Positions 1,715 to 9,098 of a DNA stretch of 9,098 nucleotides are shown one piece after another (within the stretch, counting starts at the first letter, position 1; each line of letters starts with the position of its first letter). The notes beneath the pieces are model-generated. The model was not told the DNA's origin. It did no database searches and saw only the letters and a program-made list of their open reading frames with translations. Source of the DNA: Candidatus Hermodarchaeota archaeon (GTDB lineage: Archaea; Asgardarchaeota; Heimdallarchaeia; Hodarchaeales; Hodarchaeaceae). Position numbers and translations under genes: made by a program. Where the stretch lies: the NCBI GenBank assembly GCA_048886185.1, contig JBHLKY010000052.1:1-9098 (forward strand), read 5' to 3'.

Positions 1715-3403
1715 ATGAATCAATTTAACATTGTTATTCTTAGTATTCTTCTGTTAGGGTTTACTAGCTGGACAGTAAATTTTAATATTAAGTCCACTAC
1801 AGTTGCTTTCATTCCAAATGAACTGACAAAGGGACATACAACACTGGTATCAAAAAGCGCATATAGCCAAACGTATACTCCCCATTCATCTATTGTAATT
1901 ACAGATAATGCCTATTTCGCCACGCAAGGTTTTTCGGGGAGTGGGACTCTTGATGACCCGTACCAGATTGAGTACCTTAATATTACAGCCCCCAGTGGTG
2001 ATTTGATTAGTATCAGTGACACGACCGTTAATTTCTGTATTAATAACAATTTTCTAAATGGCCTGACAACAGCGTCATCTGGAATTTCTCTCACAAATGT
2101 TCACAATGCCGTTATCAAAAACAACACAGTCTTAAATGCCAGATTTGGGGTATTTCTCTTGAACATCACTAATTGCACGCTCCTGGAAAATCTGGTTCAT
2201 GATAATATGCTCAATGGGGTGCATCTCAAGGAAGCTAGCAATACAACCATTACTAACAATACCATCTATAACCATAATTATGGTGAGTACCCCTACAGCA
2301 GTATTCTTCTCGACAATTCTTCGCATTCATCTATTACTCATAATTCACTATCCAATAGCTATATTGGCATAAACCTCCTTCATTCGGCTCACACTAACTT
2401 CATTAGAAACAATACCGTGTTTAACAATCTACAACATGGTATTCGCCTTGAATATGCTTCTAAAAACTTGATTACCCACAATATTATTCATGACAATCAA
2501 TACTATGGGATTCTCTTTACATTAGGCGCGAACAATAACACGATTAGCTACAACAATTTCACTCGTAATCATGCTGGTGATTGCCAAGGTACGGATGATG
2601 GGGTCAAAAATGTGTTTACTTACAACTATTGGGATGACTGGCCCATTCTGGACGCTGATGATGATCTCATTATCGATACTCCTTATCTCCTTGATGGTAC
2701 TGCCAATAATTCCGATCCATATCCTCTGGTATCGGTTAAGGCATATTTATTCAACAAAAGTCAGGGGAGTGGTTTGGAAAACGATTTAATCCAATTATTT
2801 GTATTGTTCATTGCTCTCATATTAGTTCCGAGTCTCACTTTGGGTTATTTTCTGTATATGAGAAAGGTAAAACAACAGGAACTTTCTCCTGAACCTGATG
2901 ACCAGATACCATTTGAAGAAGTCTTTCCATCAGACCAGATTGAGCGTTTGAAACCCCTCTATCACAAACTCATTGTGGGATTAGAGAACACCCAGACTAC
3001 ATCACTCCCTGAACCCGTAACTATTACTCTCCTAGAACCTCCAGACTCCGTAGAATTAGTGGAATACTTCCCTTCTGAGATCAAAGACGATTTAGTCTCA
3101 GGTCTCAAAGGTCGCACCATTTTAACTTTGATTGAGATTGCTTATCAGGATCCCAGTGAAACTAATTTGGTAAAATTAGCACAAAGTCTCGATGTCCCCT
3201 TATCCACTCTTTCCAAAGAAATAAAACGCCTGAATGACTTAAAGTATGTCGAAACGTTTGTTTCCCCTAAAGTGCTCTATGATGCTCGTTTTAAAAACTA
3301 TATTATCACCCCCAAAGGGTTTAAATTTCTATTCATTCTGAAAGAAGCATTACGCATTACAATTTCTCGTCTAAAAGAGACCAGGGGGGATATCTATATC
3401 TGA
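1715..3403 (+). CDS. Membrane-anchored transcription regulator: N-terminal signal/anchor, extracellular parallel beta-helix (NosD-like), single TM helix, cytoplasmic MarR-like winged HTH
   Basis: 562 aa. Hydrophobic N-terminus (IVILSILLLGF), GSGTLDDPYQIE N-cap, about 22-aa GI.L...NN.I..N coils, YNYWDDW...DTPY...DPYPL C-cap, TM at aa 358-382 followed by RKVK, then a wHTH with LAQSLDVPLSTLSKEIKRL and DARFKNYIITPKG. Confidence 0.85.
   Translation: MNQFNIVILSILLLGFTSWTVNFNIKSTTVAFIPNELTKGHTTLVSKSAYSQTYTPHSSIVITDNAYFATQGFSGSGTLDDPYQIEYLNITAPSGDLISISDTTVNFCINNNFLNGLTTASSGISLTNVHNAVIKNNTVLNARFGVFLLNITNCTLLENLVHDNMLNGVHLKEASNTTITNNTIYNHNYGEYPYSSILLDNSSHSSITHNSLSNSYIGINLLHSAHTNFIRNNTVFNNLQHGIRLEYASKNLITHNIIHDNQYYGILFTLGANNNTISYNNFTRNHAGDCQGTDDGVKNVFTYNYWDDWPILDADDDLIIDTPYLLDGTANNSDPYPLVSVKAYLFNKSQGSGLENDLIQLFVLFIALILVPSLTLGYFLYMRKVKQQELSPEPDDQIPFEEVFPSDQIERLKPLYHKLIVGLENTQTTSLPEPVTITLLEPPDSVELVEYFPSEIKDDLVSGLKGRTILTLIEIAYQDPSETNLVKLAQSLDVPLSTLSKEIKRLNDLKYVETFVSPKVLYDARFKNYIITPKGFKFLFILKEALRITISRLKETRGDIYI
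2786..2860 (+). other. Transmembrane helix of the 1715 protein
   Basis: LIQLFVLFIALILVPSLTLGYFLYM followed by basic RKVK. The positive-inside rule puts the C-terminus in the cytoplasm. Confidence 0.85.
3110..3331 (+). other. MarR-type winged helix-turn-helix domain
   Basis: HTH NLVKLAQSLDVPLSTLSKEIKRLNDLKYV. The wing D-x-R-x6-T-x-x-G (DARFKNYIITPKG) has the same spacing as the MarR DxR...LTxxG signature. Confidence 0.8.
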
Positions 3404-3464: not shown

Positions 3465-3533
3465 AAAACTATTTCCCAAATGGAGAATATCATTTCATTA
3501 TTTGAACATGTTTTCTGGGAAAGAATTAGTTTT
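3465..3533. promoter_or_regulatory. Imperfect inverted repeat upstream of the surface-protein gene pair
   Basis: AAAACTATTTCCCA (3465-3478) pairs with TGGGAAA-gaat-TAGTTTT (3516-3533), with a 4-nt bulge. TGAACA occurs at 3455, 3503 and 3545. Confidence 0.3.
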
Positions 3534-3556: not shown

Positions 3557-5719
3557 ATGATTCGAAATAAACTTGTTTTTATTACATTAATCCTTGTTCT
3601 TTTGTTTGGAATGAGTTATTCTACTGCTTTCTTCGAGTTTCAACCGAGCTCTAAAGAAAAAACGGTGAATGAGACCACGCTACGTCCTCAAAATCCCCTC
3701 CTGAAAGTATCCAATATTCAAACGTATATCGAACATGGGCCTATTACCATCACCTCAGATTTTCAATTGAATAATTCGGGATTTCCTGGTAATGGCACCA
3801 TTGACGATCCCATTCGGATTGAAGGGCTTAATATCACTGATACGAGTGGGACTTTAATCTATATCAGCGGAACAACATTCTATTTCTGTATCAAAAATAA
3901 TCTCCTGAACTGTCTATCAAGTGCAGGCACGGGAATCGTTTTGGATAATGTTATTCATGGTAATATATCAAATAACATCATACATGACATTAATGGGGCT
4001 GGGATTTTTATTACCGGAAATTCAAATAATAATATTATTAACAAAAACTTCATCTATAATGCTCAAAATAGCATTTCTCTTTCTTTTGCAATAAATAACA
4101 CTATTTACAACAATACCTGTTATTCAAATAGTGAGGATGGTATTCGTGTTGACTCCTCGGACAATAATACTATTGCAATGAATTTTATTTACGATAATAC
4201 AGCGTGTGGTGTGTGGCTATGGACTTCAAATAATAATACACTAATTCATAATATTCTTTATAATAATTCATTTGGTTTATTTTTTGAATTATCCAATAAT
4301 AATACAATTTCAAATAATAAAGTATATGAAAACAAGAATGCTGGTATTTCTCCGTACAATTCGTCATTATATAATGTAATTACTAATAACACTGTATATA
4401 ATAATGCTCACAGTGGTATTACCGTCTCTAGATATTCCCATTATTGTGTTATCTCAAACAACACAATCTATAACAACAACCAAAGTGGGATCGTTAACTA
4501 TGAATCTGAATATTCACAAATTATCAATAACACTATTTTTAATAATATGTGGAGTGGTACTCACATCTCATCAAGATCCCATCATTGTTTGTTTTCTAAC
4601 AATATAGTTTATGGAAACAAGAAATATTCTGGAATCAGTGTTGGTAATTCTACATTTGTAAGAATAACCAAGAATTCTATTTATAATAATATTGAAAAGG
4701 GTATATTTGTCGTAATCGGTGCAAATAATACTGAAATATTCGCGAATATTATTTTTGATAATATAAAGCAAGGGATTTTCATTGAAACAGATTGTAATAA
4801 TAACACAATAATCAATAATGATCTTTCTAGCAATAATCCAAGCGGATTACAAACATTAGATGATGGTTCAGCTAATAATTTTACTAGCAACCATTGGAGC
4901 GATTGGACAGGAACGGGGTCATATACCATTGATGGTTCTGCAGGGAATCAAGATTTCTCTCCCTTACTGAATCCATATCATATAACACCGCCTATCATCA
5001 CAGCACCAACCTATGAAAATATAACATTAGTAGGGAAGGTACTTATACGATGGAATGCTTCAAGTGATACTTTTGGGCATTCTCTTACCTACTCTGTTCT
5101 TTATTCGACCAACGATGGAACTAGTTGGACAACATTTGCTTCAGGCTTGACCAGTACCAATTACACCTTAGATACCCTACTGCTCGCTGATGAGCCCATT
5201 ATTTTCAAAGTTCAAGCTATTGATTCAATAGGATTTATTGCTAAGGCTACCACAGAAGAGACATTTCTGATAGAAAATGATCAACTTTCTATTCTTATAG
5301 TACTATCCCCGAATGGGGGAGAAACACTGAATGAAACTGTCACCATCGAATGGTCTGCTTCTCTGGATTCTCTCAATCATTCTATAACTTATGCGATTTA
5401 TTATTCTGGTGATGGCGGGGCAACCTGGAATCTAATAGTTACTGATCTCACATCTACCACTTATGCATGGGATACCACTACTGTCTCAAATGGCTTTAGT
5501 TACTTGATCAAAGTGGTTTCCACCTGTTCTGGGGGTAAAGTAGCTGAAGATCTCTCTGACGAGCTGTTTACTATCCAGAATGAAATACCTACTTCAACTG
5601 AACCCTCATCTAAGTCAACTTCTACTACTCCTAGTCCGATCCCAGGAATCACGGGGATTGAACTGCTCATAGCATTGTTAATTCTGATGATGGGGAAGAA
5701 TTGGAAGAAAAGAAGGTAA
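3557..5719 (+). CDS. Cell-surface parallel beta-helix (NosD/pectin-lyase-like) protein with two Fn3/Ig-like stalk domains and a PG-x C-terminal sorting/anchor tail
   Basis: 720 aa. Signal peptide (MIRNKLVFITLILVLLFG), GNGTIDDPIRIE cap, long Asn-ladder coil array, NHWSDW cap, two ~97-aa beta domains with YSxDGGxTW-like motifs and SPNGGE, S/T/P linker, and IPGITGIELLIALLILMMGKNWKKRR tail. Confidence 0.85.
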   Translation: MIRNKLVFITLILVLLFGMSYSTAFFEFQPSSKEKTVNETTLRPQNPLLKVSNIQTYIEHGPITITSDFQLNNSGFPGNGTIDDPIRIEGLNITDTSGTLIYISGTTFYFCIKNNLLNCLSSAGTGIVLDNVIHGNISNNIIHDINGAGIFITGNSNNNIINKNFIYNAQNSISLSFAINNTIYNNTCYSNSEDGIRVDSSDNNTIAMNFIYDNTACGVWLWTSNNNTLIHNILYNNSFGLFFELSNNNTISNNKVYENKNAGISPYNSSLYNVITNNTVYNNAHSGITVSRYSHYCVISNNTIYNNNQSGIVNYESEYSQIINNTIFNNMWSGTHISSRSHHCLFSNNIVYGNKKYSGISVGNSTFVRITKNSIYNNIEKGIFVVIGANNTEIFANIIFDNIKQGIFIETDCNNNTIINNDLSSNNPSGLQTLDDGSANNFTSNHWSDWTGTGSYTIDGSAGNQDFSPLLNPYHITPPIITAPTYENITLVGKVLIRWNASSDTFGHSLTYSVLYSTNDGTSWTTFASGLTSTNYTLDTLLLADEPIIFKVQAIDSIGFIAKATTEETFLIENDQLSILIVLSPNGGETLNETVTIEWSASLDSLNHSITYAIYYSGDGGATWNLIVTDLTSTTYAWDTTTVSNGFSYLIKVVSTCSGGKVAEDLSDELFTIQNEIPTSTEPSSKSTSTTPSPIPGITGIELLIALLILMMGKNWKKRR
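4988..5581 (+). repeat. Two tandem Fn3/Ig-like domains (about 4988-5278 and 5288-5581)
   Basis: Shared pattern W.AS.D...HS.TY...YS..[DG]G..W......LTST.Y..DT.......KV...........E.F.I.N. Confidence 0.75.
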
Positions 5720-5720
5720 A

Positions 5721-8315
5721 ATGAAATTGAAACGATCGAAATTGTTTATGATTACAAGTTTAATAATGCTATCTGCAGTGAATAGTTGTGTGGTAGGACA
5801 AGAGTTTCAATTCACTACAGAAAAAGAATTATTGAATACAAAGGCACTCCAACCTAGATCATGTATACAAAAAGTGACTGGTACCCAATCGTATATTGAA
5901 CGTGGTCCTATCACCATTACCTCTGATTTTCAATTAAACAATTCAGGGTTTCCAGGGAATGGCACCATTGATGATCCCATTCGGATTGAAGGCTATAATT
6001 TCACTGATTCGAGTGGAACGTTAATCTATATTCGGGATACAACCTTCTACTTCGAGATTACGAATAATTATCTTAATGGGTTGTCAAGTGCTTCGAGGGG
6101 TATCCATTTTTACAATGTTATCCATGGAACCATTAGAAATAACACTATTTCTTCTTGTGGGCAAGGGATTGAGTTTTGGTACTCTAATGACAACACAATT
6201 ATCAATAATACCGCATTCAACAATAACTATAACGGAGTCAAGTTTCATTTCACTTCTAATAATAATAAAATCATAAACAATACTATATACAATAATATCC
6301 AAGAAAATGGGATTTGGCTCGAACACTCAAAATATAATACAATTGCAAACAATACTGTGTTTAGTAACGATGACGGAATTAGATTACTCGACTCTAGTAG
6401 TAATAATACGGTGACAAACAACATTGCATTCGATAATAGATGGAATGGAATAGCTGTCCAATGGGATTCTAATAACAACATCATTAGTAAAAATTTTGTG
6501 AATAACAACTTAAAAGATGGAATTAATATTGCTGGGGCTAATAATAACTCTGTTATACAGAATATTGTGAAGAGTAGCAATTGGAGAGGAATAGCAATTG
6601 AAAAAAATTTTGCTGATAATATTGGTTCCGAAAACAATAATATCGATTTTAATATAGTCTATAACAATAGCCAGCAAGGGATTCTCCTTAATGTGGTTAA
6701 TAATAATACTGTTACCAATAATACAGTTTATCTCAACTCCCAGAATGGGATTTGTCTCGAGGAGTCAAATGATAACACTATTGCAGATAATAATATTCAT
6801 GATAATTATTTCACTGGAATTTATCTTCATAACTCAGTCAATAATACGCTGTCCAACAATACTCTGACGAATAACTATTTTAATTTGATTAAATCAGAAA
6901 CATTGTTAACACCGGTCCAAGAGGGGATTTATGATTTCACTGTAACTATCCAGAACATAAGCACTCCAGTTTCAGCTAATTCTGTACCAATCTCATGGGA
7001 AAATGTCTATTATGAATTACCACTTGATAATGGTTATGGAATTCTGGATGAGAACGTTGTTGATCTAGATCTGAACGGGGATAATGATAAAATAGACTTA
7101 TTTGATGTAACATGGTTCCATAATGAAACTCGCTCATGGGATGCTATAATCAACGATGGTTTTCAAGACATTCACGCTTACTCCATCTACGAGGGACTAC
7201 CTGAAGATCCAGGAAGGTATCGAACATATTACATAGACGGAGAATCAAAGCTATTCCAGCTAGGGACTAAAATGCATTCGCTTTATATGGTAAATAAAGA
7301 TCTTGCTGTTTTCGGATTAGAGGACGTGATTATTCTTAACCACCCAAGCCCAAACTTCCTGTTTGTTGTATACTCTCCAATTATCGATGTAACAGACTTT
7401 TACATTAATAATGCACTTATTGAAGTGAACTACACTCATACATTAGCAGCACCACAATTTGGGTTGGACTTGACATTCTATATTATCTCAGCTCAAACAA
7501 TCGGGTCAGCTGAGGTAATAACATTTTCCTGTACAATATTAACCCGCGAAACCATGATTAGTAATGTGGCCTTCCGTATGAACTGGTCACCAGATGGTAA
7601 TACTAGGTCCCAATGGGACTTTTTTACTCAAGAAATCTCGCTCATTGGTGATAACACTCCACCAACGGTGATAATAAATAAACCTCTCGCGCAAACATAT
7701 GTGACTGATACAATCACTATAGCATTGTCAGGCGATGCAACTCATTATTGGTACTATATTGAGTCAGTAGACATACAAAATCAAACCTGGACTAGTAATG
7801 TGACTCGACCATTAAGTGATGGTACCTATACCCTCCATGTGTATGGGGAGGACTCTGTGGGGAATATTGTTCGTAAGTCTGTTACGTTCACAATTGATAA
7901 TACTCCTCCATTGGTAATGATTGATTCCCCCCTCACCCAGATATACACGACTGATACAATCACTATCACATTATCAAGTGATGATGCAGTTAATTACTGG
8001 TACTACATTGAATCAGTAGATACACAAAATCAAACCTGGACTAGTGAAGTGACTCGATCATTAACTGATGGTACCTACACCCTCCACGCGTATGGGGAGG
8101 ACTTTGTGGGGAACATTGGTCACATCTACGTTACATTTACAATTGAAACCGCAGTTCCTACGACAACAACAACGACGATGATACCTAGTTCTACAACCCC
8201 TACCTCAGCAACAACTACTCCTACAAAAACTGTTACTCCTGGCTGGAATGTTCTGCTTTTACTTCTTACTTTATTTCTTATGTTACCACTAAGACAGCGT
8301 AAGAAGAAATCTTAA
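5721..8315 (+). CDS. Cell-surface parallel beta-helix protein with a ~256-aa unrecognised central domain, two Ig-like repeats, a Thr-rich linker and a PGW C-terminal sorting/anchor tail
   Basis: 864 aa. Starts 1 nt after the previous stop (TAA-A-ATG), consistent with translational coupling. Signal peptide, N-cap nearly identical to the 3557 protein, DNTPP...DG.YTLH.YGED.VGN Ig-like repeats, TTTTTT linker, and TPGWNVLLLLLTLFLMLPLRQRKKKS tail. Confidence 0.85.
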   Translation: MKLKRSKLFMITSLIMLSAVNSCVVGQEFQFTTEKELLNTKALQPRSCIQKVTGTQSYIERGPITITSDFQLNNSGFPGNGTIDDPIRIEGYNFTDSSGTLIYIRDTTFYFEITNNYLNGLSSASRGIHFYNVIHGTIRNNTISSCGQGIEFWYSNDNTIINNTAFNNNYNGVKFHFTSNNNKIINNTIYNNIQENGIWLEHSKYNTIANNTVFSNDDGIRLLDSSSNNTVTNNIAFDNRWNGIAVQWDSNNNIISKNFVNNNLKDGINIAGANNNSVIQNIVKSSNWRGIAIEKNFADNIGSENNNIDFNIVYNNSQQGILLNVVNNNTVTNNTVYLNSQNGICLEESNDNTIADNNIHDNYFTGIYLHNSVNNTLSNNTLTNNYFNLIKSETLLTPVQEGIYDFTVTIQNISTPVSANSVPISWENVYYELPLDNGYGILDENVVDLDLNGDNDKIDLFDVTWFHNETRSWDAIINDGFQDIHAYSIYEGLPEDPGRYRTYYIDGESKLFQLGTKMHSLYMVNKDLAVFGLEDVIILNHPSPNFLFVVYSPIIDVTDFYINNALIEVNYTHTLAAPQFGLDLTFYIISAQTIGSAEVITFSCTILTRETMISNVAFRMNWSPDGNTRSQWDFFTQEISLIGDNTPPTVIINKPLAQTYVTDTITIALSGDATHYWYYIESVDIQNQTWTSNVTRPLSDGTYTLHVYGEDSVGNIVRKSVTFTIDNTPPLVMIDSPLTQIYTTDTITITLSSDDAVNYWYYIESVDTQNQTWTSEVTRSLTDGTYTLHAYGEDFVGNIGHIYVTFTIETAVPTTTTTTMIPSSTTPTSATTTPTKTVTPGWNVLLLLLTLFLMLPLRQRKKKS
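7650..8144 (+). repeat. Tandem duplication of an 82/83-aa bacterial-Ig-like domain (7650-7895, 7896-8144)
   Basis: DNTPPTVIINKPLAQTYVTDTITI...YWYYIESVDIQNQTWTS...DGTYTLHVYGEDSVGN versus DNTPPLVMIDSPLTQIYTTDTITI...YWYYIESVDTQNQTWTS...DGTYTLHAYGEDFVGN. The similarity is also visible at DNA level. Confidence 0.9.
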
Positions 8316-8385: not shown

Positions 8386-8428
8386 ATACGTATCAACATA
8401 CGTATTTTTGATAACCTATCCAACGCTA
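8386..8428 (+). repeat. Composite unit A: ATACGTAT-N4-ATACGTAT-N6-TAACCTATCCAACGCTA
   Basis: Palindromes at 8386-8393 and 8398-8405; 17-mer copy 2 at 8412-8428. Confidence 0.7.
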
Positions 8429-8490: not shown

Positions 8491-8533
8491 TTATATAATT
8501 TTTTATATAAAAACTTTAACCTACCCAACGTTA
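8491..8533 (+). repeat. Composite unit B: TTATATAA-N4-TTATATAA-N6-TAACCTACCCAACGTTA
   Basis: Palindromes at 8491-8498 and 8503-8510; 17-mer copy 3 at 8517-8533. Same spacing as unit A, offset by 105 bp. Confidence 0.7.
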
Positions 8534-8687: not shown

Positions 8688-9062
8688 TTAATGAAAGCAT
8701 TCTAGAATTTTGGTGTTCCATATTTCTTCAAGAATAAGAGCTAGCCAGCCTACTCTATGAATGAGGACATTAATATCTTTCCAATCAACATCAGCTAGTA
8801 GTTCTAGCAGTTGGTCTCCAGTAGTTTCTAGAAGCTCCTCTGTTAAGGAAATACGTCTGTTCTCGATTTCTTCAATAAAGTTCAAGATCGAATCTTCTGA
8901 AGCTTTTTTATTCTTAATCATTTGTCCTAAGATAAGTCCTGTTGCTTTTACAATCAAATCAGCTTTATCATGTTTCGCAAGATTGGGGAAATCGCCTTTG
9001 AAAAATAGTTTTGCCGTTCTCACATAGAGAGTTTGACTTTTTAATTGATTTTTTTCATTCAT
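8688..9062 (-). CDS. Hypothetical small, mostly helical protein
   Basis: 124 aa, ATG start, GGTGG 13 nt upstream, amphipathic helical pattern with an acidic middle (EEIENRRISLTEELLE). No family recognised. Confidence 0.65.
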   Translation of the reverse strand: MNEKNQLKSQTLYVRTAKLFFKGDFPNLAKHDKADLIVKATGLILGQMIKNKKASEDSILNFIEEIENRRISLTEELLETTGDQLLELLADVDWKDINVLIHRVGWLALILEEIWNTKILECFH

Positions 9063-9098
9063 TGAAACTCTTTTTCCACCAGGAACTACTAATTTTAA

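Follow-up and report, generated by a model that had tools for sequence, protein, structure and literature searches.

Predicted transmembrane regulators join interchangeable ectodomains to a MarR-like module in Hodarchaeales

Results

A receptor-like gene followed by two surface-protein genes

We analysed a 9,098-base stretch of DNA from Candidatus Hermodarchaeota archaeon (assembly GCA_048886185.1, contig JBHLKY010000052.1), hereafter called the window, which is the entire contig C52 of a 4.84 Mb, 96%-complete genome and carries four co-directional genes on the forward strand. Our subject is the gene at positions 1715..3403, the sole long frame at that place, whose 562-amino-acid (aa) product, P0001, consists of an N-terminal hydrophobic segment, a beta-helix ectodomain, a single transmembrane (TM) helix and a C-terminal MarR-like module with a winged helix-turn-helix (wHTH). 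This layout is shared with orthologs (88–91% identity) and with paralogs (63–65% identity). The receptor gene is followed on the same strand by the genes of two putative targets. One, of 720 aa (3557..5719), is a secreted beta-helix protein that has two immunoglobulin (Ig)-like modules and ends in a hydrophobic anchor with a basic tail; the other, of 864 aa (5721..8315), is likewise a secreted beta-helix protein, has Big_13 Ig-like repeats and also carries an anchor at its C-terminus. These two genes are probably co-transcribed, because the gap between them is a single nucleotide (nt).

Ectodomain and membrane topology

An earlier reading made from the letters alone (the sequence-only reading) had seen in P0001 a signal or anchor, a beta-helix, one TM helix with a basic stop-transfer motif and a C-terminal MarR-type wHTH, and each of these parts was recovered by our analyses. 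The hydrophobic segment at aa 3–25 (1721..1789, forward strand) was found in a Kyte-Doolittle scan and recurs at the same N-terminus in orthologs and paralogs; it is a signal peptide or an uncleaved anchor. The right-handed parallel beta-helix occupies aa ~55–340 (1877..2734, forward strand) and was identified by Pfam, AlphaFold2, Foldseek and BLASTP. P0001 exceeds the Pfam thresholds for Beta_helix PF13229 (E 2.9e-25; 89.2 vs 25.9 bits) and for NosD (E 2.3e-21), and the AlphaFold2 model of aa 26–357 is a right-handed parallel beta-helix with a predicted local distance difference test (pLDDT) score of 87.6. The best solved relatives of the ectodomain in Foldseek were phage tailspikes, alginate C-5 epimerases, polysaccharide lyases, the adhesin PfbA and NosD. 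The ectodomain is a carbohydrate-type beta-helix with a NosD fold and without NosD orthology: assignment as a NosD orthologue was rejected, given a TIGR04247 score of 64.8 bits vs a cut-off of 300, neighbours that are surface proteins and no nosZ, nosF or nosY genes in the window. In BLASTP, the ectodomain aligned with the N-terminal beta-helices of the downstream proteins P0003 and P0004 (E 2e-28 and 2e-30, respectively), marking them as paralogous.

The single TM helix spans aa 358–381 (2786..2857, forward strand), bears a G-Y motif (LGYFLY) at its cytoplasmic end and is followed by the basic sequence MRKVK. The G-Y motif at the inner end is kept across the family, which suggests that the helix does more than anchor the protein. 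Among 118 non-identical family members, the 12 residues after the TM helix contain on average 3.0 lysines plus arginines (K+R), against 0.7 before it; 108 of the members have more K+R after the helix, 10 have equal numbers and none has fewer. From the N-terminal signal or anchor and this K+R bias, the topology is predicted to be type-I and single-pass, with the ectodomain outside and the MarR-fold module inside, the orientation that had been proposed from the sequence. N-glycosylation sequons were dropped as a topology marker: there are 12 outside and none inside, yet the Asn-rich composition alone predicts 9.1.

A cytoplasmic MarR-like module

The cytoplasmic module, a MarR-like protomer, comprises aa 385–562 (2867..3400, forward strand). 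It consists of helix alpha-1 (aa 409–426), a Pro-rich loop (427–447), the wHTH (448–531) with its recognition helix (496–508) and a long C-terminal helix (533–560). In the sequence-only reading, a linker of ~80 aa separated the membrane from the wHTH; this view has to be abandoned, since family conservation begins at the membrane and the supposed linker is a conserved part of the module, made up of the MarR-like alpha-1 and the Pro-rich loop. The helix at aa 409–426 superposes on MarR alpha-1, while the loop of ~20 aa (LPEP..PLLEP) is conserved in the family and has no MarR counterpart.

Several comparisons identified the module as MarR-like. Among the five paralogs in the same genome, MarR_2 was matched in all five (best E 8e-7) and MarR in four, together with other wHTH families, and a distant relative, P0175, clears the PF01047 threshold (25.2 vs 24.6). 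A profile search of the PDB with the module led to MarR regulators. The AlphaFold2 model of aa 385–562, built with 50 homologs, reached a pLDDT of 77 and a predicted template-modelling (pTM) score of 0.78, and a Foldseek search with it returned exclusively MarR-family regulators among the best 50 rows. A VIA search, which is independent of Foldseek, gave Z scores of 10.3 for FabT, 10.1 for TM0816 and 9–10 for many MarR proteins, with model residues 15–178 aligned. The MarR wing signature is D-x-R-x5-(I/L)-T-x-x-G. The module has it as D523-x-R525-x5-I-T532-x-x-G535 (aa 523–535, DARFKNYIITPKG); in 50 members its D, R and G are invariant and its T nearly so, and these positions align with the same residues of HsmR 8za5. 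Across the same 50 members the mean column identity of the module is 54%, and the recognition helix and wing are almost invariant. Judged from the model, the module is a whole MarR-fold protomer. Neighbours in the ESM Atlas were all wHTH regulators, yet below the score that counts, and a two-copy (dimer) prediction scored 0.36, the mark being 0.42.

Reality of the fusion and extent of the family

The sequence-only reading had pointed to positions 2700–3100 as the place where a chimeric assembly might have joined the two halves of the gene. Logan contigs of four separately assembled sediment runs, all from one study and possibly from the source samples, span this interval at 100% identity and without joints. 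None of the sequencing runs listed as containing the sequence was an RNA run. The genome itself contains five paralogs, whose modules are 63–65% identical, and the closed 4.94 Mb chromosome CP070695.1 contains five copies. A profile search of 1.84 billion representative proteins yielded 130 matches, 106 of them below 1e-10, and ~106 clusters have the same order of parts; the architecture, whose occurrence in other archaeal genomes had been raised at the outset, is thus a recurrent one. In full-length matches the module occupies the C-terminus and begins only a few residues from a TM helix. Short open reading frames (ORFs) with the wHTH part only also exist in the databases; most come from contigs of 1–2 kb and are possibly fragments.

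Among 301 genomes sampled across the phylum, the module was present in 17 of the 21 genomes of the window's own genus-level clade, at 1–6 copies each, and in 1 of 11 genomes of one other family; it was not found in the remaining ~270 genomes, which represent 28 other families. All named family matches are from Hodarchaeales-type metagenome-assembled genomes, labelled ‘Hodarchaeales’, ‘Hodarchaeota’ or ‘Heimdallarchaeota’, which assigns the source of the window to the Hodarchaeales within the Asgard archaea. By this distribution, the family is a young, lineage-specific expansion. Public annotation names its members only ‘right-handed parallel beta-helix repeat-containing’ or ‘NosD domain-containing’, as had been anticipated, and the JGI label for some small or WD40 members is ‘DNA-binding MarR family transcriptional regulator’.

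The ectodomains are interchangeable. Beta_helix/NosD domains were found in 34 of 71 representatives, WD40 propellers in 5 and ANF_receptor/Peripla_BP_6 domains in 3; further types are a Bmp/PnrA nucleoside-binding domain, NHL/SBBP propellers and small Ig-like domains of 120–200 aa. Read from these sequences, a constant module with swapped ectodomains is a sensor-TM-output pattern, that is, the logic of a receptor. That the module is the signalling output is argued by ANF_receptor and Bmp, which are dedicated ligand-binding domains and are joined to the same module via one TM helix.

Conserved neighbourhood of surface-protein genes

Flanks were readable at 24 loci. At ~19 of these, a co-directional gene lies within 100–650 nt downstream of the receptor gene, and its product starts with a signal peptide and ends in a hydrophobic anchor with a basic tail; at L021 the surface-protein gene is instead divergent and lies upstream of the receptor. 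In the beta-helix subfamily the ectodomain is paralogous to the downstream proteins (31–36% identity, E 1e-20 to 1e-33), and at the NHL-type locus L010 it is 63% identical to the downstream protein over 416 aa. This relationship is confined to the beta-helix and NHL subfamilies, and a general rule that each sensor is a paralog of its target was therefore rejected for the family. The same genome has a paralogous copy of the three-gene module at C31:1516-8298 (L002 with its flanks), the last gene of which encodes a nearly identical C-terminal anchor; this copy indicates that sensor and targets were duplicated together as a segment. No conserved protease gene was found in the neighbourhoods of the family loci.

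A candidate operator at the target promoter

The spacer between the receptor gene and the first putative target contains an imperfect palindrome at 3468..3491, a candidate operator that follows a family consensus of (A/T)AGTTTC-N6-GAAA(A/C). A TATA-like box read from the sequence, TTATTTGA (3498..3505, forward strand), begins 6 nt downstream of it. The palindrome is present in the receptor-to-target spacers of at least 16 loci, with an A/T-rich TATA-like octamer at the same offset, a few bases downstream. In 5.6 kb of spacers we counted 11 exact copies of the core TTTC-N6-GAAA, where 0.40 are expected from its genome-wide density (Poisson 8e-13), and none of 2000 shuffles reached this count. 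A half-site matrix derived exclusively from sites of other genomes was run across the full 4.84 Mb genome. Spacers belonging to three of the five paralogs of this genome took ranks 1, 6 and 9 genome-wide, and the palindrome of the window ranked 9–10 among all positions. Rank 2 was a site at C38:17023-17046, located 96 nt upstream of the gene of a 563-aa surface-anchored protein, which may be an unlinked member of the regulon. This site also lies 281 nt from a divergent gene, the start of whose product resembles, by eye, an Lrp/AsnC-type HTH regulator.

The 400 nt upstream of the receptor genes, which served as an internal control, contain no palindrome, the one exception being L021 with its divergent target; it follows that the site is a mark of target promoters. 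Autoregulation was considered and dropped, since a half-like site upstream of the window's receptor gene, at 1594–1611, scores only 7.9 bits (about rank 2400) and the upstream regions of receptor genes generally lack the palindrome. One subgroup, comprising the receptor p2 of the same genome and those at L016 and L018, has the recognition helix PTTVSYEINRL in place of STLSKEIKKL, and its orthologous targets carry another conserved motif, GATACTRCAAAAATYTG. When at most 3 mismatches to the 20-mer are allowed, its G-rich flank included, this near-exact form of the motif is present only once in the genome, upstream of that target and 8 kb from the p2 receptor gene. Recognition helix and motif thus appear to change together, a single covariation event that supports a link between palindrome and wHTH. 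A module-like peptide upstream of the variant motif on C2 turned out not to be an ORF.

Other features of the window and of related loci

The remaining gene of the four, at 419–1291 on the forward strand, encodes a 290-aa Fe-S protein with a 4Fe-4S double-cluster motif and sub-threshold likeness to the epoxyqueuosine reductase QueG and to reductive dehalogenases. On the minus strand, an ORF at 8688–9098 (at least 124–136 aa) continues past the contig end and matched no family. Neither an Rfam nor a tRNA scan of the window gave a match.

Within the 864-aa protein, positions 7649–8146 hold a tandem duplication of two Big_13-type Ig-like units of ~83 aa each, with 73–84% DNA identity. The C-termini of both downstream proteins (3557–8315) combine a Pro-Gly-x motif, a hydrophobic helix and a basic tail and resemble PGF-CTERM. 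A reading of these anchors as PGF-CTERM/archaeosortase signals was dropped: NCBIfam gave no PGF-CTERM match, and the exosortase/archaeosortase family PF09721 was not found in the 96%-complete genome.

Further sequence elements were observed. The 18-mer TTAACCTAnCCAACGTTA, an inverted repeat of the form TTAAC-N9-GTTAA, occurs at 1384–1401, 8411–8428 and 8516–8533, with a weaker copy within 248–287, so that the module of receptor and two targets is flanked on both sides; an A/T-rich TATA-like stretch usually precedes it. With up to 3 mismatches allowed, the genome has 13 copies, where roughly 3 would be expected; four of the 13 lie on contig C31, close to the paralogous module. This repeat may be the site of another regulator or a cassette boundary. 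Upstream of the receptor gene of the window, at ~1478–1490, stands the string AAGGAGGTGGGAA; it is related to an element of L010 of ~100 nt containing AAGGAGGAGGGAAC, which lies at L010:7340-8000 and 10808-11440, upstream of the NHL-type receptor gene and of its 63%-identical downstream paralog. The 5′ leaders of SBBP-type targets (on C8 downstream of paralog p8, and in the L019, L023 and L024 spacers) share a conserved inverted repeat, ATCGAGCA ... TGCTCGAT, right before the ribosome-binding site, which may form a leader hairpin.

Discussion

Relation to known systems

Transmembrane transcription regulators (TTRs) are established and widespread, with on average four per archaeal genome (PMC10269533). 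P0001 falls within their definition, a DNA-binding domain plus at least one TM region (PMC10269533), the DNA-binding domain being in this case predicted and on the cytoplasmic side. In the TTR census, MarR_2 accounts for 0.54% of TTRs and PF01047 MarR is absent, and its text and the portions of its supplements available to us make no mention of Asgard, Beta_helix or NosD (PMC10269533). Our literature searches recovered the TTR census and ArnR, and found no description of the family, of its modular ectodomains or of the operator. The family and its operator thus appear undescribed; as the TTR class is already known, the novelty lies in the family and not in the principle.

P0001 resembles the bacterial regulators ToxR, TcpP and CadC in having an extracytoplasmic sensor, a TM helix and a cytoplasmic winged helix in one polypeptide, presumably with control of a promoter from the membrane. 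ToxR and CadC, however, have an N-terminal OmpR-type wHTH, type-II topology and a small C-terminal periplasmic domain, whereas P0001 has a C-terminal MarR fold and type-I topology, and the ectodomains of its family are large and interchangeable. Membership of the ToxR/CadC family was rejected, because P0001 has no Trans_reg_C match and its predicted DNA-binding module is C-terminal. ArnR has an N-terminal HTH, a HAMP-like region and C-terminal TM helices, is not known to have a large ectodomain, and regulates archaellum and pili genes. ArnR and ArnR1 of Sulfolobus acidocaldarius are akin to P0001 as archaeal membrane-bound one-component wHTH regulators of genes for cell-surface structures (PMC6396743). 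We detected no sequence relationship to ArnR; the one trace of such proteins was a cluster labelled ‘ArnR1-like’ in the weak language-model neighbourhood.

RsgI-type anti-sigma factors of cellulolytic clostridia, Notch and SREBP likewise combine a carbohydrate-binding or contact ectodomain, one TM helix and a cytoplasmic domain that controls transcription. They share with P0001 that the regulated genes encode extracellular proteins related to the signal; they differ from it in their unrelated folds and in being known to act through sigma-factor release or proteolysis. With MarR, MexR, MepR, FabT, HsmR, BldR and ST1710, the module shares the fold over its whole length (Z 8–10) and the wing signature. 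MarR proteins are, in contrast, soluble, 140–170 aa long and sense small ligands in a cytoplasmic cleft, while the module is anchored by an N-terminal TM helix, carries an inserted Pro-rich loop of 20 aa after alpha-1, has a single long C-terminal helix and scores below the Pfam threshold.

A predicted regulator acting from the membrane

Taking sequence and structure models together, we put at about 70% the probability that P0001 is a transmembrane one-component transcription regulator, with its ectodomain outside and its MarR-like module inside. The family probably controls the neighbouring surface-protein genes directly from the membrane. Under this model, the ligand of the beta-helix ectodomain would probably be a glycan, a surface polymer or the homologous surface proteins whose genes are adjacent, and the TM helix with its G-Y motif would couple the ectodomain to the cytoplasmic MarR-like protomer. 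In response to ligand, two receptor chains would change how they pair or are oriented, and this would determine the distance between their wHTH lobes. With the regulator remaining in the membrane, these lobes would bind the palindrome GTTTC-N6-GAAA, which closely precedes the B recognition element (BRE)/TATA of the operon at 3557–8315. Activation of this operon would be more likely than repression, because archaeal activators usually bind just upstream of the TATA box. In known MarR structures the N-termini of the dimer are on the side facing away from the DNA-binding lobes, and tethering to the membrane via alpha-1 would therefore be compatible with DNA binding; the palindromic candidate site also fits a dimer.

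Several points weigh against this interpretation. DNA binding by the module is a prediction. P0001 itself scores 16.3–18.4 bits against MarR_2, below the Pfam threshold of 27, and the model of its module has one long C-terminal helix and a low-confidence 20-aa loop insertion, where canonical MarR has two C-terminal helices. The link between palindrome and wHTH is circumstantial, consisting of adjacency and the one covariation event, and another regulator could bind the site. The palindrome statistics partly measure phylogenetic footprinting, because many of the loci share ancestry and orthologous spacers were among the training sites. Homology between ectodomain and target was, moreover, not found in the small Ig-like subfamily.

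Alternative explanations

The same receptor might instead signal by regulated proteolysis, following the logic of Notch, SREBP or RsgI, with ligand binding or contact setting off cleavage in or near the TM helix and so freeing a soluble MarR-like dimer to reach the palindrome. The TM helix does contain the helix-weakening residues P, G and S besides its conserved G-Y motif, beyond the needs of a plain anchor; the Pro-rich loop, unmatched in MarR, could serve as a docking or cleavage element; and the short wHTH-only ORFs imply that the domain may work by itself. Yet most of these short forms may be fragments of 1–2 kb contigs, the neighbourhood has no conserved protease gene, and the module begins right at the membrane with a putative dimerisation helix. 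Tethered regulators that act without release are, besides, well documented, as for ToxR and Sulfolobus ArnR (PMC10269533, PMC6396743), and we hold cleavage to be an unlikely route, although the foremost among the competitors of a regulator that works in place. A related and more doubtful proposal, which draws on either route, is that the family members are contact or self-recognition receptors: the ectodomain, itself a paralog of surface proteins of the cell, would bind these proteins either on its own cell or on a neighbour, and the signal would reach the genome by Notch-like release of the MarR module or by clustering in the membrane. If true, a cell could in this way gauge and adjust its own surface coat or sense partners.

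P0001 could also be a surface beta-helix enzyme or adhesin whose winged helix is a protein-binding domain or a nucleoid/DNA tether, the palindrome then belonging to another factor. Some winged helices contact other proteins or bind DNA without a regulatory function (TubR and the Rio2 N-domain are among the fold matches), the ectodomain resembles polysaccharide-active enzymes, and the dimer prediction for the module gave no verdict. Such a role is, however, improbable when set against the invariant DNA-contacting wing residues, the fusion of the same module to sensor domains for solutes, which play neither a structural nor an enzymatic part, best fold matches that are MarR regulators over the whole module and beyond its three-helix core, and the tight co-occurrence of the palindrome with the family. 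An artefact, by chimeric assembly or a mis-joined ORF, of a beta-helix gene and a separate MarR gene would be conceivable for a short metagenomic contig of 9.1 kb in a genome with many similar beta-helix repeats; the contigs that span the junction in four runs, the five paralogs, the five copies in CP070695.1 and the ~106 clusters with the same order leave it next to no probability.

Implications

Regulators of this kind are missed by domain-based censuses and by genome annotation, because the wHTH stays below the Pfam threshold and names are taken from the beta-helix only. Hodarchaeales are among the closest known relatives of eukaryotes and are essentially uncultured, and almost nothing is known of how they sense their environment. 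For these archaea, the family offers a signalling module in which a sensor is matched with a predicted operator and a predicted surface-protein regulon. If the operator prediction is true, the surface-protein repertoire of an archaeon would become linkable to specific external cues.

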